Assembly: GCA_964453605.1 (NCBI GenBank)
Contig: CAYVOI010000001.1
Span: 310,029 to 374,028 of the forward strand
Length of the DNA stretch: 64,000 nucleotides
From: an uncultured Gammaproteobacteria bacterium
GTDB taxonomy: Bacteria; Patescibacteriota; Patescibacteriia; Veblenbacterales; UBA10138
Direction of reading: 5' to 3'
Part shown: piece after piece, positions 2,315 to 45,711 of the stretch
How the letters are laid out: each line of letters opens with the position of its first letter
Numbering within the stretch: the stretch's first letter is position 1
The notes under the pieces: generated by a model
Databases searched by the model: none
What the model saw: only the letters and a program-made list of their open reading frames with translations
What the model was told of the DNA's origin: nothing
Program-made: the position numbers and the translations under genes

Positions 2315-2881
2315 ATGCCCTCGACTACCGACAAGCTGATTGGAAAACTGGAGAGCGTGCTGTTTGCCGCCGGCAAGCCCTTAAGTTTTAAGAAGCTCGC
2401 TGAGGTAACGGAAGTGACGGTGGGCGATGTGGAACACGCCTTAACCAAGTTGCAAGAGCGCTACCAGGAAGCCGGTCATGGGTTGGAAGTTATCCAGCAC
2501 CAGGGTGAGGCAGTGCTAGCCACCCACCCCGACCACGCCGAGCTGGTGCGGCAGTTCTTGAAAAAAGAGGAGCTGGGGGAGCTGACCCGGCCGCAGCTCG
2601 AAACCCTCTCCGTGGTGGCGTACCGCGGGTCGGTGAGTAAGGCCGAGCTAGAGCAGATACGTGGGGTGAACTGCAGCCTGATTTTGCGCAACCTCATGAT
2701 CCGCGGGCTGGTGGAGACTACCGACGAAGACGCCGCCCTGCCTACGTACCACGTCACGGTTGATTTTTTAAGGTTCCTTGGGCTAAAGTCGGCCACCGAG
2801 CTGCCACACTTTGCAACCCTGTCTCAGCATGCCAACCTTGCCAACATTCTCCAAACTGAAAAACCTAGCGCTACGGCTTAG
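2315..2881 (+). CDS. scpB: Segregation and condensation protein B
   Basis: 188 aa. Two winged-helix repeats (LESVLFAAGKPLSFKKLAEV..., AYRGSVSKAELEQIRGV). Position after scpA. Confidence 0.85.
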   Translation: MPSTTDKLIGKLESVLFAAGKPLSFKKLAEVTEVTVGDVEHALTKLQERYQEAGHGLEVIQHQGEAVLATHPDHAELVRQFLKKEELGELTRPQLETLSVVAYRGSVSKAELEQIRGVNCSLILRNLMIRGLVETTDEDAALPTYHVTVDFLRFLGLKSATELPHFATLSQHANLANILQTEKPSATA

Positions 2882-3821
2882 CCGCACCTTGCCCGTAGTT
2901 GGGTTGGCCGCGTTGTTCAGCGTCTGGCCAGGGAGCCTGCGCTCTGCAGCCGCTGGGGTTGCTCTGTCGCCTCGGTTGCCGAGCTTAGGGGCGCAGGCCA
3001 TGCTGCCAGAGCCGATAGACTGGTCGCAGGTGCCGTCGCTTACGAGCCTTAACCTGTCAGCCTCCTCAGCGGTGGTCGTGCATCTGCCCGACGGCCGCCT
3101 GGTAGGGGCCTTGGACCCTGAGCACGTAAGGCCGCTGGCTTCGCTCACCAAGCTCATGACCGCGGTGGTGGCGATGGAGGTAGGGCCCAAGCTTGATGAG
3201 CTTGTCACGGTAACCCGTGCTGATAACACTGACTCGCTACTGCCGTACATGAACGCAGGGGATAAGATAAGCTACCTCTTTGTAGCTGATGGGCAGACAC
3301 TCCGGCTGCGGGACGCACTTACCGCCGCGCTGGTGGGTTCAGCCAACAACGCAGCAGCTACCTTGGCCCGGGTGAGCGGACTCTCGGCCGATGATTTTGT
3401 AGCCCGCATGAACACGCGGGCTCAAGTGTTGGGCATGTACGCTAGCCACTTTACCGAGAGCACGGGCCTAAGCCCGGCTAACACCAGCACCGCCTACGAC
3501 TACGCTATCCTGGCCCGCTACGCCTGGACCAACCGGACCCTCCGGCAGGTGTCGGGCTTGCCGCGGGCTACCTTTTCCAGTTCAGATGGCAAGGTGCACC
3601 ACATGCGGAACACCAACGCGCTGGTCACTAAGCCGCCCCCAGGGGTAACGCCACTCGCTAGCAAGACCGGCTACCTTACCGAGGCCGGCTACAACCTGGC
3701 GCTGGAGTGGAGGGCGCCAAACGGTAGTGAGTACCTGCTGGTGCTCATGAACGCGCCGTCGCTCACGGCCCGTTCAGCGGATGCGCTCAAGGTTATACGC
3801 TGGCTTCAAGCAAAAACCTGA
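2811..3821 (+). CDS. D-alanyl-D-alanine carboxypeptidase (peptidase S11, PBP5/6-like)
   Basis: Signal-peptide-like N-terminus. SxxK (ASLTK), SxN (GSANN) and KTG (SKTG) motifs. The 5' end overlaps the scpB stop, so the true start may be a downstream ATG (for example 2826). Confidence 0.75.
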   Translation: MQPCLSMPTLPTFSKLKNLALRLSRTLPVVGLAALFSVWPGSLRSAAAGVALSPRLPSLGAQAMLPEPIDWSQVPSLTSLNLSASSAVVVHLPDGRLVGALDPEHVRPLASLTKLMTAVVAMEVGPKLDELVTVTRADNTDSLLPYMNAGDKISYLFVADGQTLRLRDALTAALVGSANNAAATLARVSGLSADDFVARMNTRAQVLGMYASHFTESTGLSPANTSTAYDYAILARYAWTNRTLRQVSGLPRATFSSSDGKVHHMRNTNALVTKPPPGVTPLASKTGYLTEAGYNLALEWRAPNGSEYLLVLMNAPSLTARSADALKVIRWLQAKT

Positions 3822-6648: not shown

Positions 6649-6724
6649 GCCGTTGTAGCTCAGCTGGTAGAGCAACTCCATGGTAAGGAGTAGGTCGCCG
6701 GTTCAATTCCGGCCAACGGCTCCA
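6649..6724 (+). tRNA. tRNA-Thr (anticodon GGU)
   Basis: Cloverleaf: acceptor gccgttg/caacggc, D arm agctcagctggtagagc, anticodon loop atGGTaa, T arm gccggttcaattccggc, encoded CCA. Confidence 0.85.
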
Positions 6725-6792
6725 GAAGGGGTGGGGTAAATGGCGCAACTCCATGCTTGCCCAGTAGGGAATTGCAAAGCGATTCTGCTTCT

Positions 6793-6836
6793 GGGGTAAG
6801 GAGTAGGTCGCCGGTTCAATTCCGGCCATCGGCTCC
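6793..6836 (+). repeat. Partial duplicate of tRNA-Thr(GGU) 3' portion (anticodon-loop 3' side to CCA), 1 mismatch
   Basis: ggtaaggagtaggtcgccggttcaattccggccatcggctcca is near-identical to 6682..6724. No matching 5' acceptor strand upstream. Confidence 0.75.
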
Positions 6837-6928
6837 AGGCAGCGGGCCAAGCCGGCCACGGGCCGTAAAGCCCTCGCGGGCCCACGGCCCTTTACGAGGC
6901 TCCACGTTCCTTTTACGTTTTTGGTCTC

Positions 6929-7014
6929 GGGTGGGTATCGAAGTGGTCAAACGAGACTGACTGTAAATCAGTTGCCTTCGGGCTTCGCAGGTTCGAATCC
7001 TGCCCCACCCACCA
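6929..7014 (+). tRNA. tRNA-Tyr (anticodon GUA), class II long variable arm
   Basis: Acceptor gggtggg/cccaccc, anticodon loop ctGTAaa, long variable arm, T arm gcaggttcgaatcctgc, encoded CCA. Confidence 0.85.
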
Positions 7015-7087
7015 CGTAAAGCTCGCACAGCTCGCCATGTGGTATTAAAATAGTTGTAAGTGGTGCACCCCGTAGAGGTGCGTCAGC

Positions 7088-7123
7088 ACCTTCTTCGGGG
7101 TTCGAATCCTGCCCCACCCACCA
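7088..7123 (+). repeat. Partial duplicate of tRNA-Tyr 3' end (variable-arm remnant, T arm, acceptor, CCA)
   Basis: ggggttcgaatcctgccccacccacca is identical to the 3' 27 nt of the tRNA-Tyr at 6988..7014. Confidence 0.8.
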
Positions 7124-7191
7124 TTCGGCTCGCTTCGCTCGCTCATGGTAAACCAAGCGAGTCGAATGCCCCGAGCCGAGCCGAGGGGTTG
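7123..7191 (+). repeat. Hairpin plus conserved motif (gagtcgaatgcc ccgagccgagccgaggggttg) shared with the tRNA-Pro locus at 31928..32030
   Basis: 13-bp stem attcggctcgctt/aagcgagtcgaat with one G-U pair. The motif gagtcgaatgcc at 7159..7170 matches 31989..32000 exactly. Confidence 0.6.
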
Positions 7192-7206
7192 AAAAACAAG
7201 CGTGCT

Positions 7207-7407
7207 ATGGGTACACTATACTACGTTTATATGATGCGCTGCTCCGACGGTACGTTCTACGTCGGGATGACAGTCAACCTCGCGGCACGAGAAGCTCGTC
7301 ACATTCGAGGTGATGGCGCGAAGTTTACCAAGTCACATGGAGGAGAACGTATAGTATATCGAGAGCCACATGCTACGTATTTAACTGCACGGCGTAGAGA
7401 GATATAG
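7207..7407 (+). CDS. Stand-alone GIY-YIG nuclease domain protein (YhbQ/UPF0213-like)
   Basis: YYVYMMRCSDGTFYVGMTVNLAAREARH is a GIY-YIG motif; an ERIVYRE glutamate is present. About 66 aa from ATG 7207; the track ORF starts further upstream at an alternative codon. Confidence 0.7.
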   Translation: MGTLYYVYMMRCSDGTFYVGMTVNLAAREARHIRGDGAKFTKSHGGERIVYREPHATYLTARRREI

Positions 7408-7464
7408 ATAAAGAACTGGCGCCGCGAGAAGAAAGAACGTTTACTTTTAGGCCTTAAGCCGTAG

Positions 7465-7539
7465 GCCAGCGTAGCTCAGTGGTAGAGCAACTGTTTTGTA
7501 AACAGTAGGTCGTCGGTTCGACCCCGACCGCTGGCTCCA
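7465..7539 (+). tRNA. tRNA-Thr (anticodon UGU)
   Basis: Acceptor gccagcg/cgctggc, D arm gctcagtggtagagc, anticodon stem actgt/acagt with loop ttTGTaa, T arm gtcggttcgaccccgac, CCA. Flanked by gccttaag direct repeats. Confidence 0.85.
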
Positions 7540-7576
7540 GCCTTAAGTCATCTTATCCGTTTTTGTTTGCCCTCGT

Positions 7577-7732
7577 ATGTCGCAAGATAACCTCGTTAAG
7601 CTTGAGTGCAGTGTGTGTCACCGCATTACCTACCACACCTTCCGCAACAAGAAGAAGGTCAAGGCGCGGCTGGAAACCATGAAGCACTGCCCGTGGTGCA
7701 AGAAGCACACGCTCCACAAGGAGACGAAGTAG
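7577..7732 (+). CDS. rpmG: 50S ribosomal protein L33 (zinc-ribbon type)
   Basis: 51-aa ORF not in the ORF track (<60 aa). MSQDNLVKLECSVCHRITYHTFRNKKKVKARLETMKHCPWCKKHTLHKETK matches the L33 pattern (C-x2-C...C-x2-C and KHT.HKE.K). Confidence 0.85.
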   Translation: MSQDNLVKLECSVCHRITYHTFRNKKKVKARLETMKHCPWCKKHTLHKETK

Positions 7733-7757
7733 CTTACTACTGCCACGTCTCCCGTTT

Positions 7758-7831
7758 GGGGGGTTCGTTCAGTGGTAGGACTTCGGTCTCCAAAACCGAT
7801 AACGTGGGTTCGATTCCTACACCCCCTGCCA
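7758..7831 (+). tRNA. tRNA-Trp (anticodon CCA)
   Basis: Acceptor ggggggt/accccct (G1-U72 wobble), anticodon stem tcggt/accga with loop ctCCAaa, T arm gtgggttcgattcctac, encoded CCA. Confidence 0.85.
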
Positions 7832-12709: not shown

Positions 12710-13762
12710 ATGCCTAACAAAACTATTGTGCTCATTACTGCCGCTGTCGTTATACTACTCGTGGCTGCTGGGTTGTACCTTGACCAAAAGGGCAAACATC
12801 CACTTACCAATACAGCGTCCGTCACCGGAACAGAGCCTTCTGCGTCAGCTACTACCATGGGCAAGGTGGAGTTTCAGGACTACGGCACGGCGCCGGAGTT
12901 TACCGGCATTAGCCACTGGCTAAACACCGAACCACTTACCATGGAGAGCCTCCGGGGTAAGGTAGTCCTCATCGATTTTTGGACGTACTCATGCATTAAC
13001 TGCATCCGCACCCTGCCCCACGTAACCGAGTGGTACAATACGTACCAAGACAAGGGTTTTGTGGTTGTGGGGGTACACACACCAGAGTTTGCTTTTGAGA
13101 AAGAAACCGGCAATGTGCAAGCGGCGATTGATCACTTCGGCATTCACTACCCCGTGGCGCAAGATAATGACTACGCCACCTGGGGAGCCTACAGCAACCA
13201 GTACTGGCCGGCTGAGTACTTGGTGGACAAGCAGGGTAGGGTGAGGTATGTGCACTTTGGTGAGGGGAACTACGACCACACCGAGAACGCTATTCGTGAG
13301 TTGCTTGGCTTAAACGATGAGGCAGAGGCAGCCGCCTCGGCTGACAACCTCACTAACGTGGGCTCGCCTGAAATGTACTTTGGTACTGACCGGCTGCAGA
13401 ACTTGGTACGCACACAAACTGCGAAAGCTGTAGCAACCGCCTATGCCTTCCCTAAAGATCTACCGCTTAATACCTTTGCCCTTGAGGGCAGCTGGCAGTT
13501 CTCGCCACAGAGCCTAACGCTCGCAGGGGAGGGAGGTGAGCTACGGCTAAAGTTTCACGCCGGCAAGGTGCACCTGGTGGCCGCGAGCCCAACTTCACCA
13601 GCCGAAGTTACCATTACCGTTGATGGTAAACCCCAGCCTACGGTTACGGTGAGTCAGGCCGAGCTCTACACCTTGTTTAGCTCAGCTGACTACACCGACC
13701 ACGTAATAGACATCAAAGTTCAGGGCCCGGGGTTTCAAGCCTTCACCCTCACCTTTGGCTAA
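12710..13762 (+). CDS. Membrane-anchored TlpA/ResA-like thioredoxin (redoxin family) with a C-terminal extension domain
   Basis: N-terminal TM helix. Redoxin fold with WTYSCINCIRTLPH (CxxC). About 150 aa of extra C-terminal domain. Confidence 0.7.
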   Translation: MPNKTIVLITAAVVILLVAAGLYLDQKGKHPLTNTASVTGTEPSASATTMGKVEFQDYGTAPEFTGISHWLNTEPLTMESLRGKVVLIDFWTYSCINCIRTLPHVTEWYNTYQDKGFVVVGVHTPEFAFEKETGNVQAAIDHFGIHYPVAQDNDYATWGAYSNQYWPAEYLVDKQGRVRYVHFGEGNYDHTENAIRELLGLNDEAEAAASADNLTNVGSPEMYFGTDRLQNLVRTQTAKAVATAYAFPKDLPLNTFALEGSWQFSPQSLTLAGEGGELRLKFHAGKVHLVAASPTSPAEVTITVDGKPQPTVTVSQAELYTLFSSADYTDHVIDIKVQGPGFQAFTLTFG

Positions 13763-13964
13763 ACCTATGCGCCTCGGGAACCAGGTTAAGCGATTGCGCT
13801 TGGTGAAGAACATCACGCAAGAGCAGTTGGCGCGGGTGGTAGGGGTGTCGCGGCAGACTATCATCGCCATTGAGCAGGGGAACTACACTCCCTCGCTGAC
13901 CCTGGCTCTGCAGCTGGCTCACTTTTTTAAAGTTGCAGTGGAGGAGCTGTTTCGTCTAGAGTAA
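13755..13964 (+). CDS. XRE-family HTH transcriptional regulator (YozG-like, 69 aa)
   Basis: ITQEQLARVVGVSRQTIIAIEQGNYTPSLTLALQLAHFF is a canonical Cro/C1 HTH. Confidence 0.75.
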   Translation: MAKPMRLGNQVKRLRLVKNITQEQLARVVGVSRQTIIAIEQGNYTPSLTLALQLAHFFKVAVEELFRLE

Positions 13965-13968
13965 ACGT

Positions 13969-14328
13969 ATGAAACTCATTAGCTACTACCTGTTCCTGCT
14001 GGTGTTCATTGCCCTGCTCACGGGGTTTCTCCTGCAGCGTGGAGCACAGGCCATGAGCATGGGGCAGGTGCTCTCGGTGTCGGTGCTCTTGGGGCTCTAC
14101 GTGGTTGGTATGTCGTTCCTGGGGGAAGGTAAGCCAACCGATGAACGGGCCGTGTTCCACCGCTACCTGGCCAACCGCTACGCCCTGCTCGCCGGCACCG
14201 TCGTGCTCTCCCTGGGTGTACTGGTGCAGCTGTTCACCGAACAGCTCGACTACTGGTTGCTCACGGGTTTGATCGCTATCAACGTAGTAAAGGTGATGAG
14301 CCTCGTGTACTCGAGCCACAAGAACTAA
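13969..14328 (+). CDS. Small 4-TM membrane protein, partner of the XRE regulator (DUF2975/YoaS-like arrangement)
   Basis: 119 aa, hydrophobic. 5 bp downstream of the HTH gene. Confidence 0.5.
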   Translation: MKLISYYLFLLVFIALLTGFLLQRGAQAMSMGQVLSVSVLLGLYVVGMSFLGEGKPTDERAVFHRYLANRYALLAGTVVLSLGVLVQLFTEQLDYWLLTGLIAINVVKVMSLVYSSHKN

Positions 14329-31669: not shown

Positions 31670-31745
31670 CGGGGTATGGCCTAATTGGTAAGGCGCACGC
31701 TTCGGGTGCGTGAGATTCTGGGTTCGAGTCCCAGTACCCCGACCA
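31670..31745 (+). tRNA. tRNA-Pro (anticodon CGG)
   Basis: Acceptor cggggta/taccccg, D arm gcctaattggtaaggc, anticodon stem cacgc/gcgtg with loop ttCGGgt, T arm ctgggttcgagtcccag, CCA. Confidence 0.8.
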
Positions 31746-39996: not shown

Positions 39997-40686
39997 ATGT
40001 CACAGCGCAGTAAGCGGTACAAAGCCGCCAAAGCCGCCGTCACGCCAGGTAAGGCTTACGAGCCTAAAGAGGCGGTAGACATTATTAAGGCTGAACCAGC
40101 AGCTAAGTTCGACGCCTCAGTGGAGGTGCACCTGCACCTCGGGGTCGATGTTAAACAGGCTAACCAGCAGGTGCGGGGCAGTGTCGTGCTCCCAAACGGC
40201 ATAGGGAAGACTAAGCGCGTGGCTGTGTTCTGCGCCGAGGACAAGCAGAAGGCGGCCAAGGCCGCTGGCGCCACCCTGGTCGGTGGTGAAGAACTCATTA
40301 AGGAAATTCAAACCACGGGCAAGTGCGATTTTGATGTCGCGGTGGCAACTCCTGACATGATGAAGCTCCTGGCCCCCATTGCCAAAATTTTAGGGCAGAA
40401 GGGCCTCATGCCTAACCCTAAAACTGAGACCATTACGCCAGACGTAGCCAAGGCAGTTGAGAACTTGAACAAGGGCAAGGTAAGTTTTAAGGCCGACGAC
40501 ACCGGCAACGTGCACCAAATGATCGGCAAGCTCTCGTTTGAGGCAGCCAAACTCCTGGAGAACCTCACCACCTTTATTGAGGCGGTAAAGCGCGCCAAAC
40601 CCTCGGGCGCTAAGGGCACCTACGTTATGAGTGCTACGCTTACCACCACCATGGGCCCGGCAGTCAAGGTACACGTGAGTGCCTAA
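39997..40686 (+). CDS. rplA: 50S ribosomal protein L1
   Basis: MSQRSKRYKAAK..., FDASVEVHLHLGVDVKQANQQVRGSVVLPNG. ATG at 39997 with RBS. Confidence 0.9.
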   Translation: MSQRSKRYKAAKAAVTPGKAYEPKEAVDIIKAEPAAKFDASVEVHLHLGVDVKQANQQVRGSVVLPNGIGKTKRVAVFCAEDKQKAAKAAGATLVGGEELIKEIQTTGKCDFDVAVATPDMMKLLAPIAKILGQKGLMPNPKTETITPDVAKAVENLNKGKVSFKADDTGNVHQMIGKLSFEAAKLLENLTTFIEAVKRAKPSGAKGTYVMSATLTTTMGPAVKVHVSA

Positions 40687-40807
40687 GGTTAGCCCTGTTT
40701 TGTTAATAGTGCTACTGTTATCTTAGATTTTTAGTTACTGTTAATTAACTTTATCTTCTCTTAAAGCGGTTCTCGTTAGCTAGCCGTATAAGGGAGAGGA
40801 CAACCAT

Positions 40808-41698
40808 ATGCCTGAAAAGTCTATGGGAGCTGACTTGAGTGAGCAAATATACCAGGAGCATCGCGACGCTTCTTGGAAACTGGATTCTAGTAAACAGAAA
40901 AAAGAGTTTTTGGACGAATCAGACTTTGTTAGTAAGTTTATTGCGGCTATTAGTGGTAAAAGACGAGAAGTTGAACAGAGAGTACAAGAAAGTCGGAAAA
41001 CTTATGAGGAAAATTTACGCCTCGCGCAAGAGCATATAGACGAAATGCATGAGCAAGCAAATGAGTATGTAAAAAGTTATGAGGTTTACGAACGAGAGCT
41101 GCAAAGGCTTACACAAGAGCTTGGGGCACAGTATAGTGAACGAGTAGAGGCGCTTCCTTGGCCAGCTTCGACAGCTGATATCAATGGCTATATTGATGAG
41201 ATGGTGGGGCTGAAAGTCGAACGTGGGATATCTTTGGAAGATCGGGCGCGGATAGTCGCCGCTATTGATATTTTTAAGCCTAAAATGGATAACCCAGGTT
41301 TTGCTGGTGAATCTTTTGTGATTGGCGAAGGAACCGATAGCGTAGAAGTCGGAATTTATAACGGCTCCCGTTTTCCAAGGTGGGAACTAGGTCAAGATAA
41401 CATCGCATCGGCCTCTGAAGTAGCGCACAGCAAAGGCTGGAAGGACATTTTGGAGGTGTCAACAGCTGTTACCTATCCGAGGAGGTATGATTCTCCTAAG
41501 GACCCTTCTGTTGAGGCTGAAAAGAAAGTTTATATTGCCCTAAGTGATGAAACAGCTAACCTGCTAAAGCAAGCTGGGCCCGATAATCTGAATTCTAGCT
41601 CCACCTTAACTTCGAAATTTGGTCGAGGTCTAGACTTGAGCACGCTCCATAATAGCTTTAATGTCATTGAGCTAGAGCGGGTGCGACAGAACAATTAG
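40808..41698 (+). CDS. Hypothetical protein (296 aa), coiled-coil N-terminal half, in an AT-rich segment
   Basis: Visibly lower GC than flanking genes. AT-rich 120-nt upstream region. No recognisable motif. Confidence 0.45.
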   Translation: MPEKSMGADLSEQIYQEHRDASWKLDSSKQKKEFLDESDFVSKFIAAISGKRREVEQRVQESRKTYEENLRLAQEHIDEMHEQANEYVKSYEVYERELQRLTQELGAQYSERVEALPWPASTADINGYIDEMVGLKVERGISLEDRARIVAAIDIFKPKMDNPGFAGESFVIGEGTDSVEVGIYNGSRFPRWELGQDNIASASEVAHSKGWKDILEVSTAVTYPRRYDSPKDPSVEAEKKVYIALSDETANLLKQAGPDNLNSSSTLTSKFGRGLDLSTLHNSFNVIELERVRQNN

Positions 41699-41718
41699 CT
41701 CACTTTGGTTGCAGTAAC

Positions 41719-42297
41719 ATGATACTCTCTGACCGTGACATCAAAGCAGCTCTCAAGGAGGGCAAGATCGGCGTGGAGCCGCTCTATGAGGGCGCTCTGC
41801 AGCCCGCCTCGGTGGATTTGCACCTCGACAAAAAGTTCCTCATTTTTCGGAACACCGAACACGCGTTCATAGACGTTAAGCAACCCATTGCTGACCTCAT
41901 GGAGGAGGTTGTCATTGCCGAGGACCGGCCGTTCATCATCCACCCTGGTGAGTTTGCGCTTGGGGTAACCGTTGAGAAGATAACCCTAGCTGACGATATG
42001 GTGGCCAGGCTCGAGGGCAAATCTTCCTTAGGTCGTATTGGTATCATCATCCACGCCACCGCCGGCTTTATTGACCCTGGAAATTCACTCAAGCCCACGC
42101 TCGAGCTCCACAACATTGGTAACTTGCCGGTGAAGCTCTACTACAACATGCCCATAGCGCAGATAGCTTTTATGCCGCTCTCGAGCCCTGCCGAGCACCC
42201 CTACGACAAGAGCCACAAGTACTTTGGCGCCTCAGAGCCGCAAGCCTCTAAGATGCACGAGAACTTTACCCCGCACCACCCAACTCCACGCACGTAA
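41719..42297 (+). CDS. dcd: dCTP deaminase
   Basis: MILSDRDIK...ASVDLHLD...IIHPGEFALGVT...EGKSSLGRIGI. Confidence 0.85.
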   Translation: MILSDRDIKAALKEGKIGVEPLYEGALQPASVDLHLDKKFLIFRNTEHAFIDVKQPIADLMEEVVIAEDRPFIIHPGEFALGVTVEKITLADDMVARLEGKSSLGRIGIIIHATAGFIDPGNSLKPTLELHNIGNLPVKLYYNMPIAQIAFMPLSSPAEHPYDKSHKYFGASEPQASKMHENFTPHHPTPRT

Positions 42298-42476
42298 GTG
42301 AGAACGGGTATGACCATATTGATAGTACCTAATCTTCAGGCGACCTTAGTCGTGTTAAGGGTTGGTGCTGGGTTTAAGGGCCAGAGTTAGCCTAACTCTG
42401 GTACTGAGCTTCCGGATATAAGCAGACCTACCACAGTGTTGTAGTAGGTCCGTTTCTGCTCGGGGAACCTCGGTTT

Positions 42477-42770
42477 TTAACCGTTCGCTGCTTCCATCAG
42501 TTCATTGGCATGAATGGGTGAGCCGTATCTGAACTGTGGTTCCTTTTGATGCTTGGGGCAGTACATATGGAACACGGTACGTGTGCCCGAGCCGGCGCAT
42601 GGCCCAGGACCATCTTCCCATATCGTGTGGGTTGCCTGCACCATGATAATGCCAGCGCCGGTTTTCTTACAAACCCATTTGTTCCTTTTATACACAGCAT
42701 GCCGCCCAAGCCACTCGCGTTCTTTTTTCACTATGGTAACTTGGCCAGGAGCAGTTTGTATGCCGCTCAT
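42477..42770 (-). CDS. Hypothetical small basic Cys/His-containing protein (97 aa)
   Basis: Only ORF in a 600-nt gap. Antisense to the flanking operon. Function unknown. Confidence 0.3.
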   Translation of the reverse strand: MSGIQTAPGQVTIVKKEREWLGRHAVYKRNKWVCKKTGAGIIMVQATHTIWEDGPGPCAGSGTRTVFHMYCPKHQKEPQFRYGSPIHANELMEAANG

Positions 42771-42902
42771 AGTAATCTCCTTGTTGGTTGTGGAATATTT
42801 ACCTCCCGTTTTTTGAATTTTTGTAAATCAACCTTAGCGCTGACCTGCCTGAAAGTCAATAGCGCCCCCTTGAGCTTTAGGGTGTAATTTTTTATACTAC
42901 CC

Positions 42903-43967: not shown

Positions 43968-44684
43968 CTACCCGCCGTTTTTGCCCTTCAATAGGGCGAG
44001 CATTTTGGGGCGGTAGGGAGCGTAGAGCACCTTTATTGAAATGAACTCCTCAGCGTAGCAATCGAGTTCATCGTGGTGCAGGGGTAAGTCAGAGGCGTAC
44101 TTCTGGTGCCCGGCCTCAAGCTCTTCGAACATGTGCATAACGTAGCCGATGCGTTCCAGGGCGTTGAAGAACCTACCTTCACGTGTATTTTCATACTGGA
44201 TTTCGTACAGGGTTTGGTAGGCACTCACCACCGCACTCTTGTAGGGTTCCTCGAGGGGGAGCTGGCTCAGCCAGTGGCGGAAGCGCTTGCGCTCCAGCTC
44301 GTCGTAGTAGGCTTTCTTGTCACCCAGTTTTTCCGTCCAGGGTACATCGAAGTGTCCCTCGCCATTGTGGTTTGGTTCCCCCTCTTCACCTAGGTCGTGT
44401 ATACCCGCTGCGATGATGAGTGAAGCCATGTTCAGAGGTTCCCCAGAGCCAAACTGTGCTTCAATAAAGAGAGCAACTTCAGTTAGGCGCACCTGTTCAA
44501 ACAGGTGTTGGAGCACGTTCTGAACGCGGTAGCGTTCGTCAAGTTTGAACCTGCCCCACCGCTTGGTACGCTGGGCTTGCGCTGCGGCGTAGAGTATGTG
44601 CTGCTGTAAGGTAACGATTTGTTTGGATACTGGTATGGCATCTTCCGGTACAACTGCCGGCGCGGTATCTATTTTTTGCTCCAT
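43968..44684 (-). CDS. HD-domain phosphohydrolase (YfbR-like 5'-deoxynucleotidase candidate)
   Basis: His...HDLGE...D pattern (IAAGIHDLGEEGEP). Confidence 0.5.
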   Translation of the reverse strand: MEQKIDTAPAVVPEDAIPVSKQIVTLQQHILYAAAQAQRTKRWGRFKLDERYRVQNVLQHLFEQVRLTEVALFIEAQFGSGEPLNMASLIIAAGIHDLGEEGEPNHNGEGHFDVPWTEKLGDKKAYYDELERKRFRHWLSQLPLEEPYKSAVVSAYQTLYEIQYENTREGRFFNALERIGYVMHMFEELEAGHQKYASDLPLHHDELDCYAEEFISIKVLYAPYRPKMLALLKGKNGG

Positions 44685-44838: not shown

Positions 44839-45711
44839 ATGAAGGCTTACTTAGATATAGTCAGAAAGGTTTTGGAAACTGGTCAGTTGAAATCAACTCG
44901 CCAGGGTACCGATGCTTATACGATTGCTGGTGAGAAGTTTGAGCACGACATGGCCAACGGTTTTCCATTGTTGACAACGAAAAAAGTTCCGCTTCGGCTG
45001 GTGGCTTCAGAACTGGAATTTTTTATAAAAGGCATTACTGATAAAAAATGGTTACAAGATAGGAATAATCACATTTGGGATGAGTGGGCCAACCCCCGCC
45101 AGGCACCCTATGGTCATGACCAGGCTGCTAAGGAACGCATGCTTAATGAGCGCGACCTAGGCGCAGTGTATGGTTACCAGTGGCGTCATTTCAACTATCC
45201 CTACGAGAGCTATGGTACTGACTATGCTGGCAAGGGCTACGACCAGCTGCAAAAGGTTATAGATACGCTAAAATCAAACCCAAATGATCGGCGCATGATC
45301 GTTAGTGCCTGGAACCCGTTGATGCTCGACAGCATGGCGCTGCCGCCGTGCCACTATGGATTTCAGGTGACAGTGATTCGTGGTCGGTTGAATTTATTAT
45401 GGAATCAGCGCTCCGTTGATATTATATTGGGTTTGCCTTTTAATATCGCAAGCTACGCTTTGTTATTGCATTTACTAGCTAAAGAGACTGGGCTCCAAGA
45501 AGGAAAACTAATTGGGTTTTTGGCTGATATACATTTATTTCTTAATCACGTTGATGGGGCTAAAGAGCAATTATCTAGAGACCCGGATAAATATAAATTA
45601 CCCAAAATAGAAACCGAGAATTTCACCTCCATATTTAATTGGCAGTACACTGACAGTAAGCTGGTTGGCTACGAGAGCTATCCAGCTATTAAATTTGATA
45701 TCGCGGTTTAG
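44839..45711 (+). CDS. thyA: Thymidylate synthase (ThyA type)
   Basis: FPLLTTKKV, R..E..WF..G, active-site LPPCH, and SYALLLHLLA motifs. Confidence 0.9.
   Translation: MKAYLDIVRKVLETGQLKSTRQGTDAYTIAGEKFEHDMANGFPLLTTKKVPLRLVASELEFFIKGITDKKWLQDRNNHIWDEWANPRQAPYGHDQAAKERMLNERDLGAVYGYQWRHFNYPYESYGTDYAGKGYDQLQKVIDTLKSNPNDRRMIVSAWNPLMLDSMALPPCHYGFQVTVIRGRLNLLWNQRSVDIILGLPFNIASYALLLHLLAKETGLQEGKLIGFLADIHLFLNHVDGAKEQLSRDPDKYKLPKIETENFTSIFNWQYTDSKLVGYESYPAIKFDIAV

Follow-up and report, generated by a model that had tools for sequence, protein, structure and literature searches.

The window, as the whole stretch of 64,000 nt analysed here is called, contains an open reading frame (ORF) of 296 amino acids between rplA and dcd, in the gene order secE, nusG, rplK, rplA, ORF, dcd, with dut, thyA, folA and tmk further downstream. 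The preliminary description had read the locus as an AT-rich spacer followed by a 296-aa ORF and a nucleotide-metabolism operon, and this layout was confirmed, the AT-rich spacer between rplA and the ORF being 121 nt long (40687-40807). The features of the locus are as follows.

39997..40686, + strand: rplA (ribosomal protein L1), the upstream neighbour (Pfam Ribosomal_L1, E = 1.4e-61)
40687..40744, + strand: proximal part of the spacer, aligning with the nearest relative (L001) only
40745..40760, + strand: upstream motif TTAACTTTATCTTCTC, conserved before the L001 orthologue and the L005-L010 homologues
40781..40807, + strand: TATAAG box and Shine-Dalgarno sequence GGGAGAGG, just before the start codon (sequence)
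40808..41698, + strand: the 296-aa ORF, stop codon included (ORF list, homologues, dN/dS)
40817..41146, + strand: N-terminal helical hairpin, residues 4-113 (AF2)
41180..41695, + strand: C-terminal alpha/beta domain, residues 125-296 (AF2)
41267..41287, + strand: motif D154-I-F-K-P158-K-M at the end of helix 143-156 (family alignments)
41369..41392, + strand: motif R188-F-P190-R191-W-E193-L-G195 (family alignments)
41699..41718, + strand: 20-nt junction between the ORF stop and the dcd start (sequence)
41719..42297, + strand: dcd (dCTP deaminase), the downstream neighbour (Pfam DCD PF22769, E = 2.2e-43)

That 40808..41698 is a true gene, as opposed to a frame open by chance, is shown by its good ribosome-binding site, by seven full-length homologues and by dN/dS ratios of 0.09-0.13, with a value of about 0.12 against the L001 orthologue, which indicate purifying selection. 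Its GC content is 0.444 vs 0.548 for the window, and its GC3 (0.397) is the lowest among the 77 ORF calls of the window (mean 0.626, sd 0.067), 3.4 sd under the mean and lower even than the intergenic GC content of 0.474. The product is acidic (pI 4.9), contains no Cys and, showing no visible N-terminal hydrophobic segment, looks cytoplasmic. The upstream neighbour rplA starts with the ATG at 39997 and encodes a protein of 229 aa, of which an identical 229-aa copy is present in the protein collection.

The proximal part of the spacer does not resemble the sequence ahead of the ORF in other family members and is lineage-specific. The adjoining motif TTAACTTTATCTTCTC is unique in the window (chance expectation 0.01 matches), overlaps the palindrome GTTAATTAAC and may act as promoter or operator. 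Closer to the start codon, the sequence TATAAG(A/G)GA(A/G)(A/G)GG is kept in the aligned regions upstream of the ORF in L001 and L005-L010. A simple scan of the spacer yielded neither a sigma-70-like promoter nor a terminator, and the search for an RNA element gave no Rfam match and an unremarkable fold (z-score -1.0). Because the terminator scan of the + strand detected none at the ORF-dcd junction, transcription would be expected to read through into dcd. Taking into account that L005-L010 have TTAACTTTATCTTCTC in an unrelated context, the gene appears to form a cassette unit that came with approximately 60 nt of its own upstream sequence.

The preliminary description had proposed a coiled-coil-plus-globular architecture, and the AF2 model (pLDDT 82, pTM 0.73) agrees with it: long helices spanning residues 4-113 (4-37, 40-49, 51-105 and 107-113) are combined into a hairpin, followed by an alpha/beta domain (residues 125-296) with the topology alpha-alpha-beta-beta-alpha-beta-beta-alpha-beta-beta-alpha. 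The hairpin contains a conserved helix, TYEENLRLAQEHIDEMHE-ANEYV (residues 64-88), whereas the C-terminal domain carries the signatures D-x-F-K-P and R-F-P-R-x-(E/D)-x-G. All 14 aligned members have D154 and P158; R188, P190 and G195 complete the set of family-invariant residues, R191 is nearly invariant, and position 193 is, judging by the alignment, E or D in most members. The string HIDEMHE, considered as a metalloprotease-like motif, was ruled out, its His residues not being conserved in distant members. Comparison of the whole model with PDB and BFVD by Foldseek gave nothing under E = 0.06, a profile of the C-terminal domain alone found 0 matches among PDB sequences at E <= 10, and PDB sequence profile searches with the family alignments returned nothing meaningful. 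None of the structure matches assigns an activity: F-BAR domains, the AcrA/MacA hairpin and SMC-like coiled coils match the hairpin in a generic helix-on-helix manner (4-11% identity), and none of these matches extends over the C-terminal domain.

In E. coli and many other bacteria the slot after rplA belongs to rplJ-rplL. The abstract of PMC8046335 describes the conserved secE-rpoBC cluster. The preliminary description had assumed that rplJ-rplL would normally be found at this place, an expectation that holds for model bacteria only. In four contig sets of related Patescibacteria dcd comes after rplA, with or without an orthologue of the 296-aa ORF in between, and rplJ-rplL were found at the rplA-dcd junction in none of the sampled relatives, so that nothing was displaced. 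Searches by tblastn with E. coli L10 and L7/L12 (approximate query sequences) gave no significant match in the window or in 16 loci. These comparisons show that in this lineage, which is related to Candidatus Veblenbacteria, rplA natively precedes dcd.

The orthologue occupies the same rplA-dcd site in L001-L003. L001 is the nearest relative of the window (rplA identity 88% vs 68-74% for the others), and the encoded proteins are 66% identical. Two more distant relatives (L012/L013 and L014-L016) have the same flanks, including the whole dcd-dut-thyA-folA-tmk block, and no ORF, their rplA-dcd spacer being just 60-74 nt long; dcd is 91-93% identical across the lineages compared. The synteny check proposed earlier thus located the ORF at this site in the nearest relative only, and its absence from L012-L016, together with its being the compositional outlier of the window, supports insertion. 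Two genes of L014-L016 without a Pfam match (294 and 327 aa) were tested as hidden homologues and proved unrelated.

The insertion is old, and a single event fits the data. For the ORF, dS between the window and L001 is 1.9, similar to the 1.0-1.7 of the flanking genes, the upstream spacer aligns end to end, and the orthologue is common to the window and its nearest relative; dN of the ORF is comparable to that of folA, tmk and gatB. Of the original claim of a low-GC gene of unknown function, recently inserted directly after rplA, the ORF, its low GC content and the lack of a family match have stood, whereas "recent" has to be abandoned. Since low GC3 has been kept through dS > 1 in two lineages, foreign origin alone is an insufficient explanation of it. 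Neither target-site duplications nor inverted repeats were found around the window ORF. As judged from these alignments, the ORF seems to be a single-gene cassette of approximately 0.95 kb in the short rplA-dcd spacer, at a site shared with the nearest sampled relative, and since its insertion it appears to have been inherited vertically under purifying selection. That it is an acquired accessory cassette of one gene, which displaced nothing, is highly probable.

The family to which the gene belongs is very small, unannotated and restricted to Patescibacteria. It comprises 13 clusters among 1.84 billion representatives, and the source names on members or their neighbours are of Patescibacteria (CPR) only, one member being named "Patescibacteria group bacterium" and one dcd neighbour Candidatus Veblenbacteria. 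A metagenome scan added one locus, and no relatives were detected in phage records (50,697), plasmid records, IMG/VR or GTDB representatives. Searches of the literature on Veblenbacteria, on Patescibacteria defence and on CPR ribosomal gene order brought up nothing on this family.

Members occur in different surroundings: between rplA and dcd, 18 nt after pheS, between glyA and folD, upstream of 16S rRNA, and as a stand-alone copy next to yceG; further neighbours are an SDR gene and a LigT-like gene. L028, which belongs to MAG GCA_043798785.1, is the only locus with a Fic gene and an IS200-type gene, approximately 2.5 kb from the member. GC content is 0.36-0.47 in the family vs 0.35-0.63 in neighbouring genes. 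GC3 of the member is lower than that of its neighbours in L001, L017, L021, L023, L024 and L028 (in L028 0.35 vs 0.80-0.88) and about level with it in L005 and L027; among the hosts examined, one (L004) had no lower GC3 in the ORF than in the neighbouring genes.

In L005/L008/L011 and L024/L025 a co-oriented XRE-HTH gene (69-71 aa) lies directly upstream of the ORF at a distance of 75-122 nt, an association that counts as a single observation because L005-L011 and L024/L025 share flanks and represent one locus type. This type is a 1.6-1.7 kb unit bounded by inverted repeats of 38-41 nt. In L005, a contig of 1559 nt, the two ends are perfect inverted repeats of 38 nt with the HTH gene and the ORF between them; in L024, which belongs to MAG GCA_043824815.1, the repeat around the two genes is 41 nt long and 95% matched, and inspection by eye revealed no target-site duplication at its ends. 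Both flanks of L011 and L024 are 82% identical at the nucleotide level, whereas identity between the ORFs is only 25%; with the window protein the L011 allele shares 57% identity. The window has no HTH gene beside the ORF, its only XRE homologue being located 27 kb away at 13755-13964, and the inverted-repeat sequences of L005 and L024 are absent from it. The XRE-HTH partner, the inverted repeats and the divergent alleles at one locus lend indirect support to the notion of an exchangeable accessory or conflict gene, as does the AT-richness that members show irrespective of the GC content of the host.

The preliminary description had also entertained an abortive-infection or defence role, and the library searches did not bear this out. 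With the window protein, Pfam, NCBIfam, PADLOC and PHROGs gave sub-threshold matches on the helical N-terminal part only, and with 14 family members and the C-terminal domains alone the same libraries gave only sub-threshold N-terminal or scattered single matches. The best match in PADLOC-DB v2 was LmuB (E = 0.0024, 14.6 bits; hairpin residues 26-111), which does not amount to a significant defence match, and no PADLOC model matched more than one of the 14 members. No defence island surrounds the window ORF, whose neighbours are housekeeping genes, and phage and plasmid records gave no matches.

The most likely reading of the family is that of a horizontally exchanged pool of accessory genes, as suggested by the AT-rich composition in most hosts, the varied contexts and the allele replacement at L011/L024. 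For the locus as a whole, the best explanation would be an old accessory cassette whose product is most likely an effector in genetic conflict, a tentative account that falls somewhat short of being probable. Such an effector could be of the exclusion, abortive-infection or addiction type and, where the XRE partner is present, might be repressed by it. Protein-protein contacts would be its probable mode of action, the hairpin serving for oligomerisation or docking and the surface with the D and R motifs being a putative binding or active site. The window copy would then be an orphan of the XRE-linked module, and its transcription might be driven by the element ahead of it, by rplKA transcripts running on into dcd, or by both.

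The assignment as a conflict or defence effector, taken by itself, is possible though on the unlikely side. It has to contend with the lack of a consistent defence, toxin or phage HMM match in any family member, with the housekeeping neighbours of the window copy and its lack of an XRE partner and of flanking repeats, and with the acidic nature of the protein, which is unlike most nucleases and toxins. An orphan toxin without antitoxin should not be tolerated, and this also counts against a conflict role. A more far-reaching version is doubtful. In it the gene, either an effector in genetic conflict or a selfish gene similar to homing genes, would be specific to Patescibacteria and encode an alpha/beta fold not seen before; it would enter the spacers of highly conserved housekeeping operons as a "promoter plus ORF" cassette of approximately 1 kb, and where it is regulated, an XRE repressor would control it within a module that is bounded by repeats and whose alleles are swapped rapidly.

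An ordinary lineage-specific cellular function also fits the stable vertical retention and a dN like that of folA, tmk and gatB. On this view the gene would share a transcript with rplKA and dcd, and its product would be an accessory factor for thymidylate/folate (dNTP) metabolism or for the ribosome. This is consistent with the orientation of the gene, which is that of its neighbours, with its position 20 nt before dcd and the lack of a terminator on either side, with purifying selection and co-divergence with the flanks, with the lack of mobility features in the window, and with a second, independent member whose two neighbours, glyA and folD, likewise belong to the thymidylate cycle. However, a core gene should be found at the corresponding site in every relative and have host-like composition, whereas this one is missing from the junction in L012/L013 and L014-L016 despite their intact dcd-dut-thyA-folA-tmk block and is an extreme compositional outlier, as are its relatives in most hosts. 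Moreover, other members lie beside the unrelated pheS, 16S rRNA, yceG, SDR and LigT-like genes, the distribution is very narrow, and similarity to metabolic or ribosomal families is lacking, which makes a cellular role of this kind improbable.

A selfish, free-standing gene of the homing type, spreading into the spacers of housekeeping operons with DNA passing between CPR cells by natural uptake, would account for the recurrence of members as single co-oriented ORFs near conserved genes (rplA and dcd, pheS, glyA and folD), for the presence/absence polymorphism at an otherwise conserved junction, for the unusual conservation of dcd only 20 nt downstream and for an AT content above that of the host in most of the loci. 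No GIY-YIG, HNH, LAGLIDADG or PD-(D/E)XK signature was found by Pfam in any member, however; the acidic protein has just one invariant acidic residue, the window copy has persisted vertically for long without decay (dN/dS 0.12), and the small size of the family speaks against active spread. We consider this origin quite improbable.

There is little chance that the gene is the remnant of a prophage or integrated element, left over as a moron or superinfection-exclusion gene. The XRE repressor-like partner at one locus, the AT-rich composition and a sub-threshold DUF1351 match in two members are in line with such an origin, but no homologue was found in the 50,697 phage records, IMG/VR or BFVD, there was no consistent PHROG match, and none of the loci examined contained other phage genes.

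The two-ORF layout of the L005/L024 unit is similar to that of IS families in which OrfA is an HTH protein and OrfB the catalytic one. The ORF could accordingly be imagined to serve, in a catalytic or accessory capacity, a small IS-like element or mobile insertion cassette (inverted repeat, HTH ORF, ORF of ~290 aa, inverted repeat), the copy in the window then being a remnant, either domesticated or stranded. Besides the repeats enclosing both genes in L005 and L024, the contigs seen with the P0004 and P0020 types, which are all shorter than 5 kb as for repeated elements in assemblies, agree with this idea. Its prospects are slimmer still: no member matches a transposase or recombinase family, the acidic protein has no DDE-like triad, the L024 repeat ends lack a target-site duplication by eye, the repeat motif folds into a local hairpin as well and may be REP- or terminator-like, and the window copy has neither repeats nor an HTH gene. 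In addition, L011 and L024 share sequence past the right repeat, which makes them one locus, as opposed to a fresh insertion.

That the ORF is a diverged or fused rplJ/rplL in canonical position, as its place after rplA and a length near that expected for L10 plus L7/L12 (~295 aa) might suggest, is effectively refuted by the rplA-dcd synteny of L012-L016, where nothing lies between the two genes, and has a negligible probability in view of the homologues at unrelated junctions, the lack of a Ribosomal_L10 or Ribosomal_L12 match in Pfam and NCBIfam, and an AF2 domain order (N-terminal helical hairpin, C-terminal alpha/beta) unlike that of L10.

Little is known on how ultra-small CPR episymbionts handle phages and mobile DNA. 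If the conflict reading is right, the gene would represent an unannotated CPR effector family with a confidently modelled domain that gave no match in PDB or BFVD; the family would also illustrate, on a small scale, how cassettes of one gene colonise housekeeping operons. The more far-reaching version, if true, would add a novel type of defence or addiction gene to organisms for which few known defence systems are reported. Even if the conflict reading is wrong, the synteny expectation is corrected, rplA-dcd being native in the lineage, the insertion is dated as old, and low GC3 is recognised here as a trait of the family and no mark of recency.

Compared with known systems, the window ORF resembles rplJ-rplL of the rplKAJL-rpoBC cluster in filling the slot after rplA, but has no similarity to them in sequence or domain order, and the slot is here natively the rplA-dcd junction. 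Two-ORF IS elements and mobile insertion cassettes, the latter being inverted repeats around cargo that includes no transposase, are similar to the repeat-bounded unit of 1.6-1.7 kb with a small HTH ORF and an ORF of ~290-376 aa; this unit, however, shows no transposase signature and, by eye, no target-site duplication, and its repeats are absent from the window. The homing endonuclease genes seg and mob of phage T4 are similar in being lone ORFs of distinct composition between conserved co-oriented genes, with relatives devoid of the gene, whereas the window ORF has no detected nuclease motif or fold, resides in a cellular genome and has been under purifying selection since before the split of the window and L001. 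From XRE-HTH-linked conflict modules (type II toxin-antitoxin and Abi-like pairs) the locus is set apart by the gap of 75-122 nt between the genes and the conserved upstream element of the ORF itself, by an acidic protein that matches no known toxin or Abi family or fold (Pfam, NCBIfam, PADLOC or PDB), and by the lack of an HTH partner in the window copy and most members; with these modules it has in common the XRE-HTH gene upstream of the ORF in relatives and a patchy, AT-rich family with diverse alleles in a conserved frame.

The junction between rplA and dcd reads as follows (window positions):

end 40686, plus strand: rplA (Pfam Ribosomal_L1, E = 1.4e-61)
between 40686 and 40808: AT-rich spacer of 121 nt
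40808..41698, plus strand: orphan ORF of 296 codons, with the Shine-Dalgarno sequence GGGAGAGG ahead of its start
start 41719, plus strand: dcd (Pfam), 20 nt past the ORF

An AAA_18 kinase-like gene, dut, a minus-strand HD gene, thyA, folA, tmk and gatB lie 3' of dcd. The preliminary description (rplA, AT-rich spacer, 296-aa ORF, nucleotide genes) matches this layout; what it observed was largely correct, and its interpretation holds in part. The reading frame 40808..41698 is a genuine gene, with seven full-length homologues among 5.8 billion clustered proteins and a dN/dS of 0.09-0.13 in the unsaturated homologue pairs; the exact protein is recorded in a protein collection on an 876-kb contig.

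For the synteny comparison four related contig sets were recovered, including L001-L003, L012/L013 and L014-L016. The window dcd belongs to the same cluster (at least 90%) as a Candidatus Veblenbacteria protein (Parcubacteria/Patescibacteria). In the nearest relative, L001-L003 (identity to the window: nusG 99%, rplA 88%, thrS 85%, gatB 76%), secE-nusG-rplK-rplA is followed by a 294-aa orthologue, 66% identical, and then by dcd. In the more distant L012/L013 and L014-L016 (rplA 68-74%) dcd comes after rplA with a gap of just 60-74 nt. E. coli L10 and L7/L12, used as query sequences, gave no significant tblastn match in the 64-kb window or in 16 loci. From this result and the rplA-dcd order of the relatives, no rplJ-rplL is expected after rplA in this lineage; the ORF therefore displaced nothing, and is an indel at the native rplA-dcd junction. 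A fused or diverged rplJ/rplL was also considered and refuted. It had been proposed that a recent insertion, possibly encoding a defence protein, took over the rplJ-rplL slot. The insertion is borne out by the lack of the ORF in L012/L013 and L014-L016, but the displacement is not, since relatives carry dcd after rplA either directly or behind the same ORF.

Recency is likewise unsupported. The rplA-ORF spacers of the window and L001 can be aligned end to end, which points to one insertion event. Between these two genomes the dS of the ORF is 1.9, compared with 1.0-1.3 for nusG, rplK, rplA, dcd and dut and 1.7 for gatB, which we read as inside the range of the neighbours, with tmk saturated; its dN, 0.24, falls between the values of folA/gatB and tmk. 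Since dS and dN are comparable to those of the neighbours and the spacers align, the ORF has co-diverged with the genome since before the two species split.

The low GC content, in contrast, is statistically strong. The ORF has a GC of 0.444 (window 0.548) and a GC3 of 0.397, the lowest among the 77 ORF calls in the window (mean 0.626, sd 0.067) and below the intergenic GC of 0.474. The orthologue in L001 has a GC3 of 0.35 vs 0.61-0.76 for most neighbours (0.52 for thyA), and the family ORF has the lowest GC3 in nearly all loci with comparable neighbours; L004 is the exception, and the ORFs of L005 and L027 are about level with a neighbour. Because GC3 is still 0.40 in the window and 0.35 in L001 despite the old co-divergence, recent arrival cannot account for the composition. 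Its persistence could reflect either a constraint particular to this gene or the repeated replacement of alleles out of an AT-rich pool.

Elsewhere the family ORF is found in these contexts:

L028 (3361-4379): 18 nt 3' of pheS; GC3 0.35 vs 0.80-0.88 for the neighbours
L021: between glyA and folD
L017: behind gyrA and a divergent membrane-protein gene, immediately 5' of a 16S rRNA gene
L023: stand-alone, adjoining yceG
L004: ahead of an SDR gene
L027: ahead of a LigT-like gene

A lineage-specific cellular factor tied to the dNTP/folate genes or the ribosome would agree with two independent contexts touching the thymidylate cycle, but the ORF is missing in relatives that keep the operon. The placement pattern would also fit a homing-type selfish gene, although the ORF has no nuclease signature. 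The pheS-pheT junction occupied in L028 is a further insertion site, with an unrelated 294-aa membrane protein in L014 (2556-3440). HTH_17, Fic and IS200-type Y1 transposase genes (145-1431) are located about 2-3 kb upstream of the family ORF in L028, with DciA, a 133-aa ORF and pheS in between. In L017 the 16S gene 3' of the family protein P0020 appears, by eye, to bear an insertion near its 5' end (about 2700-3254); such insertions have been described in many CPR 16S genes.

One locus type stands out: in L005/L008/L011 and L024/L025 the family ORF comes after an XRE-HTH gene of 69-71 aa, and in two of these loci inverted repeats flank the pair:

L024, 94-134 and 1796-1836: 41 nt, 95% identical
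L005, 7-44 and 1522-1559: 38 nt, perfect

The architecture in L005 and L024 would suit the ORF of an IS-like element or mobile cassette, but a transposase signature is missing and the window lacks all of these features. In L024 a third copy, 23 nt past the right repeat, pairs with it as well; the repeats could therefore be REP- or terminator-like sequences instead of the ends of a transposon. L011 and L024 share about 82% nucleotide identity in both flanks and 89% identical HTH proteins, whereas their family ORFs (294 vs 376 aa) are only 25% identical; with the protein of the much GC-richer window genome the L011 allele shares 57% identity. On these alignments, L011/L024 represent allele or cassette replacement within a conserved frame, and are direct evidence of horizontal exchange. 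About 60 nt 5' of the start codon (TTAAC(C/T)TTA..TTCTC, TATAAG, RBS) are common to the window, L001 and L005-L010, and the motif occurs once in the window; the transferred unit therefore looks like the ORF with its own 5' region, about 0.95 kb. By eye, clear sigma-70-like promoters can be read ahead of several other family ORFs too.

Side observations were made on other window loci. The HTH of the module has a single homologue in the window, a 69-aa XRE-HTH gene (39% identical), followed by a 119-aa membrane protein (13755-14328). Thymidylate synthase (thyA, 44839-45711), whose GC of 0.438 and GC3 of 0.467 rank among the window's lowest, is only 35-39% identical to its counterparts in the three related lineages and 44-45% to phage thyA genes, while dut and folA are 86% and 71% identical to L001; this pattern suggests a xenologous replacement of thyA. 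Between dut and thyA, the content of the minus-strand slot (43968-44684) varies, with an HD/YfbR-like gene (weak Pfam match) in the window, a PNP_UDP_1 gene in L012 and L014, and a 165-aa gene without Pfam match in L001. Protein identity of dcd (41719-42297) is 91-93% across all four lineages vs 68-88% for ribosomal protein L1, and dcd is unusually strongly conserved, or homogenised. The 600 nt that separate dcd from the AAA_18 gene (42298-42902) hold a single ORF, Cys-rich, 97 aa, on the minus strand (42477-42770), with no Pfam match and no counterpart in the relatives. Four tRNA genes (6649-7828) and a fifth (31670-31742) are the sole Rfam gathering-score matches in the window.

Searched exhaustively with phmmer, 1.84 billion representatives yielded only 13 proteins at E <= 0.001, and profile searches added none. 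The family is known so far from Patescibacteria alone, one member being labelled 'Patescibacteria group bacterium'. GTDB representatives, IMG/VR, phage records and plasmid records contained no relatives, and the lack of phage homologues argues against a prophage remnant. No family library recognises any member. The proteins are without exception acidic (pI 4.6-5.6) and contain almost no Cys. Five residues are invariant in the alignment of 14 sequences (D154, P158, R188, P190 and G195; R191 nearly so). They define the motifs D-x-F-K-P-K-M and N-G-x-R-F-P-R-x-(E/D)-x-G, next to which a helix, TYEENL..A.EHIDEMHEEANEYV, is conserved. With this alignment AF2 (pLDDT 82, pTM 0.73) predicted:

residues 4-113: long helical hairpin
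residues 125-296: alpha/beta domain (alpha-alpha-beta-beta-alpha-beta-beta-alpha-beta-beta-alpha)

Foldseek with the whole model found nothing below E = 0.06 in PDB and BFVD, and a profile of the C-terminal domain had zero matches to PDB sequences. The modelled alpha/beta domain is a candidate novel fold.

The ORF is thus an acquired, vertically kept single-gene accessory cassette, and belongs to a small and AT-rich family whose members are exchanged horizontally. Its patchy occurrence, the transfer from genome to genome, the extreme divergence of alleles within a fixed frame, the XRE partner and the bounding repeats are in combination the usual signature of genetic-conflict genes, from which we infer that genetic conflict (exclusion, abortive infection or addiction) is the most likely role. 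The hairpin may serve oligomerisation or docking, and the face with the D/R motifs could be the functional site. A conflict role has indirect support, and serious points speak against it: the protein is acidic, and the window ORF has no partner gene, yet has been kept long at an ordinary evolutionary rate. Defence and toxin models did not match the family proteins and no defence island surrounds the ORF, which leaves the defence idea of the preliminary description unconfirmed. Importance would rise with proof that the C-terminal domain is a new effector fold, or with a conflict phenotype of the XRE-linked module. The family is new and uncharacterised, and is of a familiar general kind, the horizontally exchanged accessory gene.
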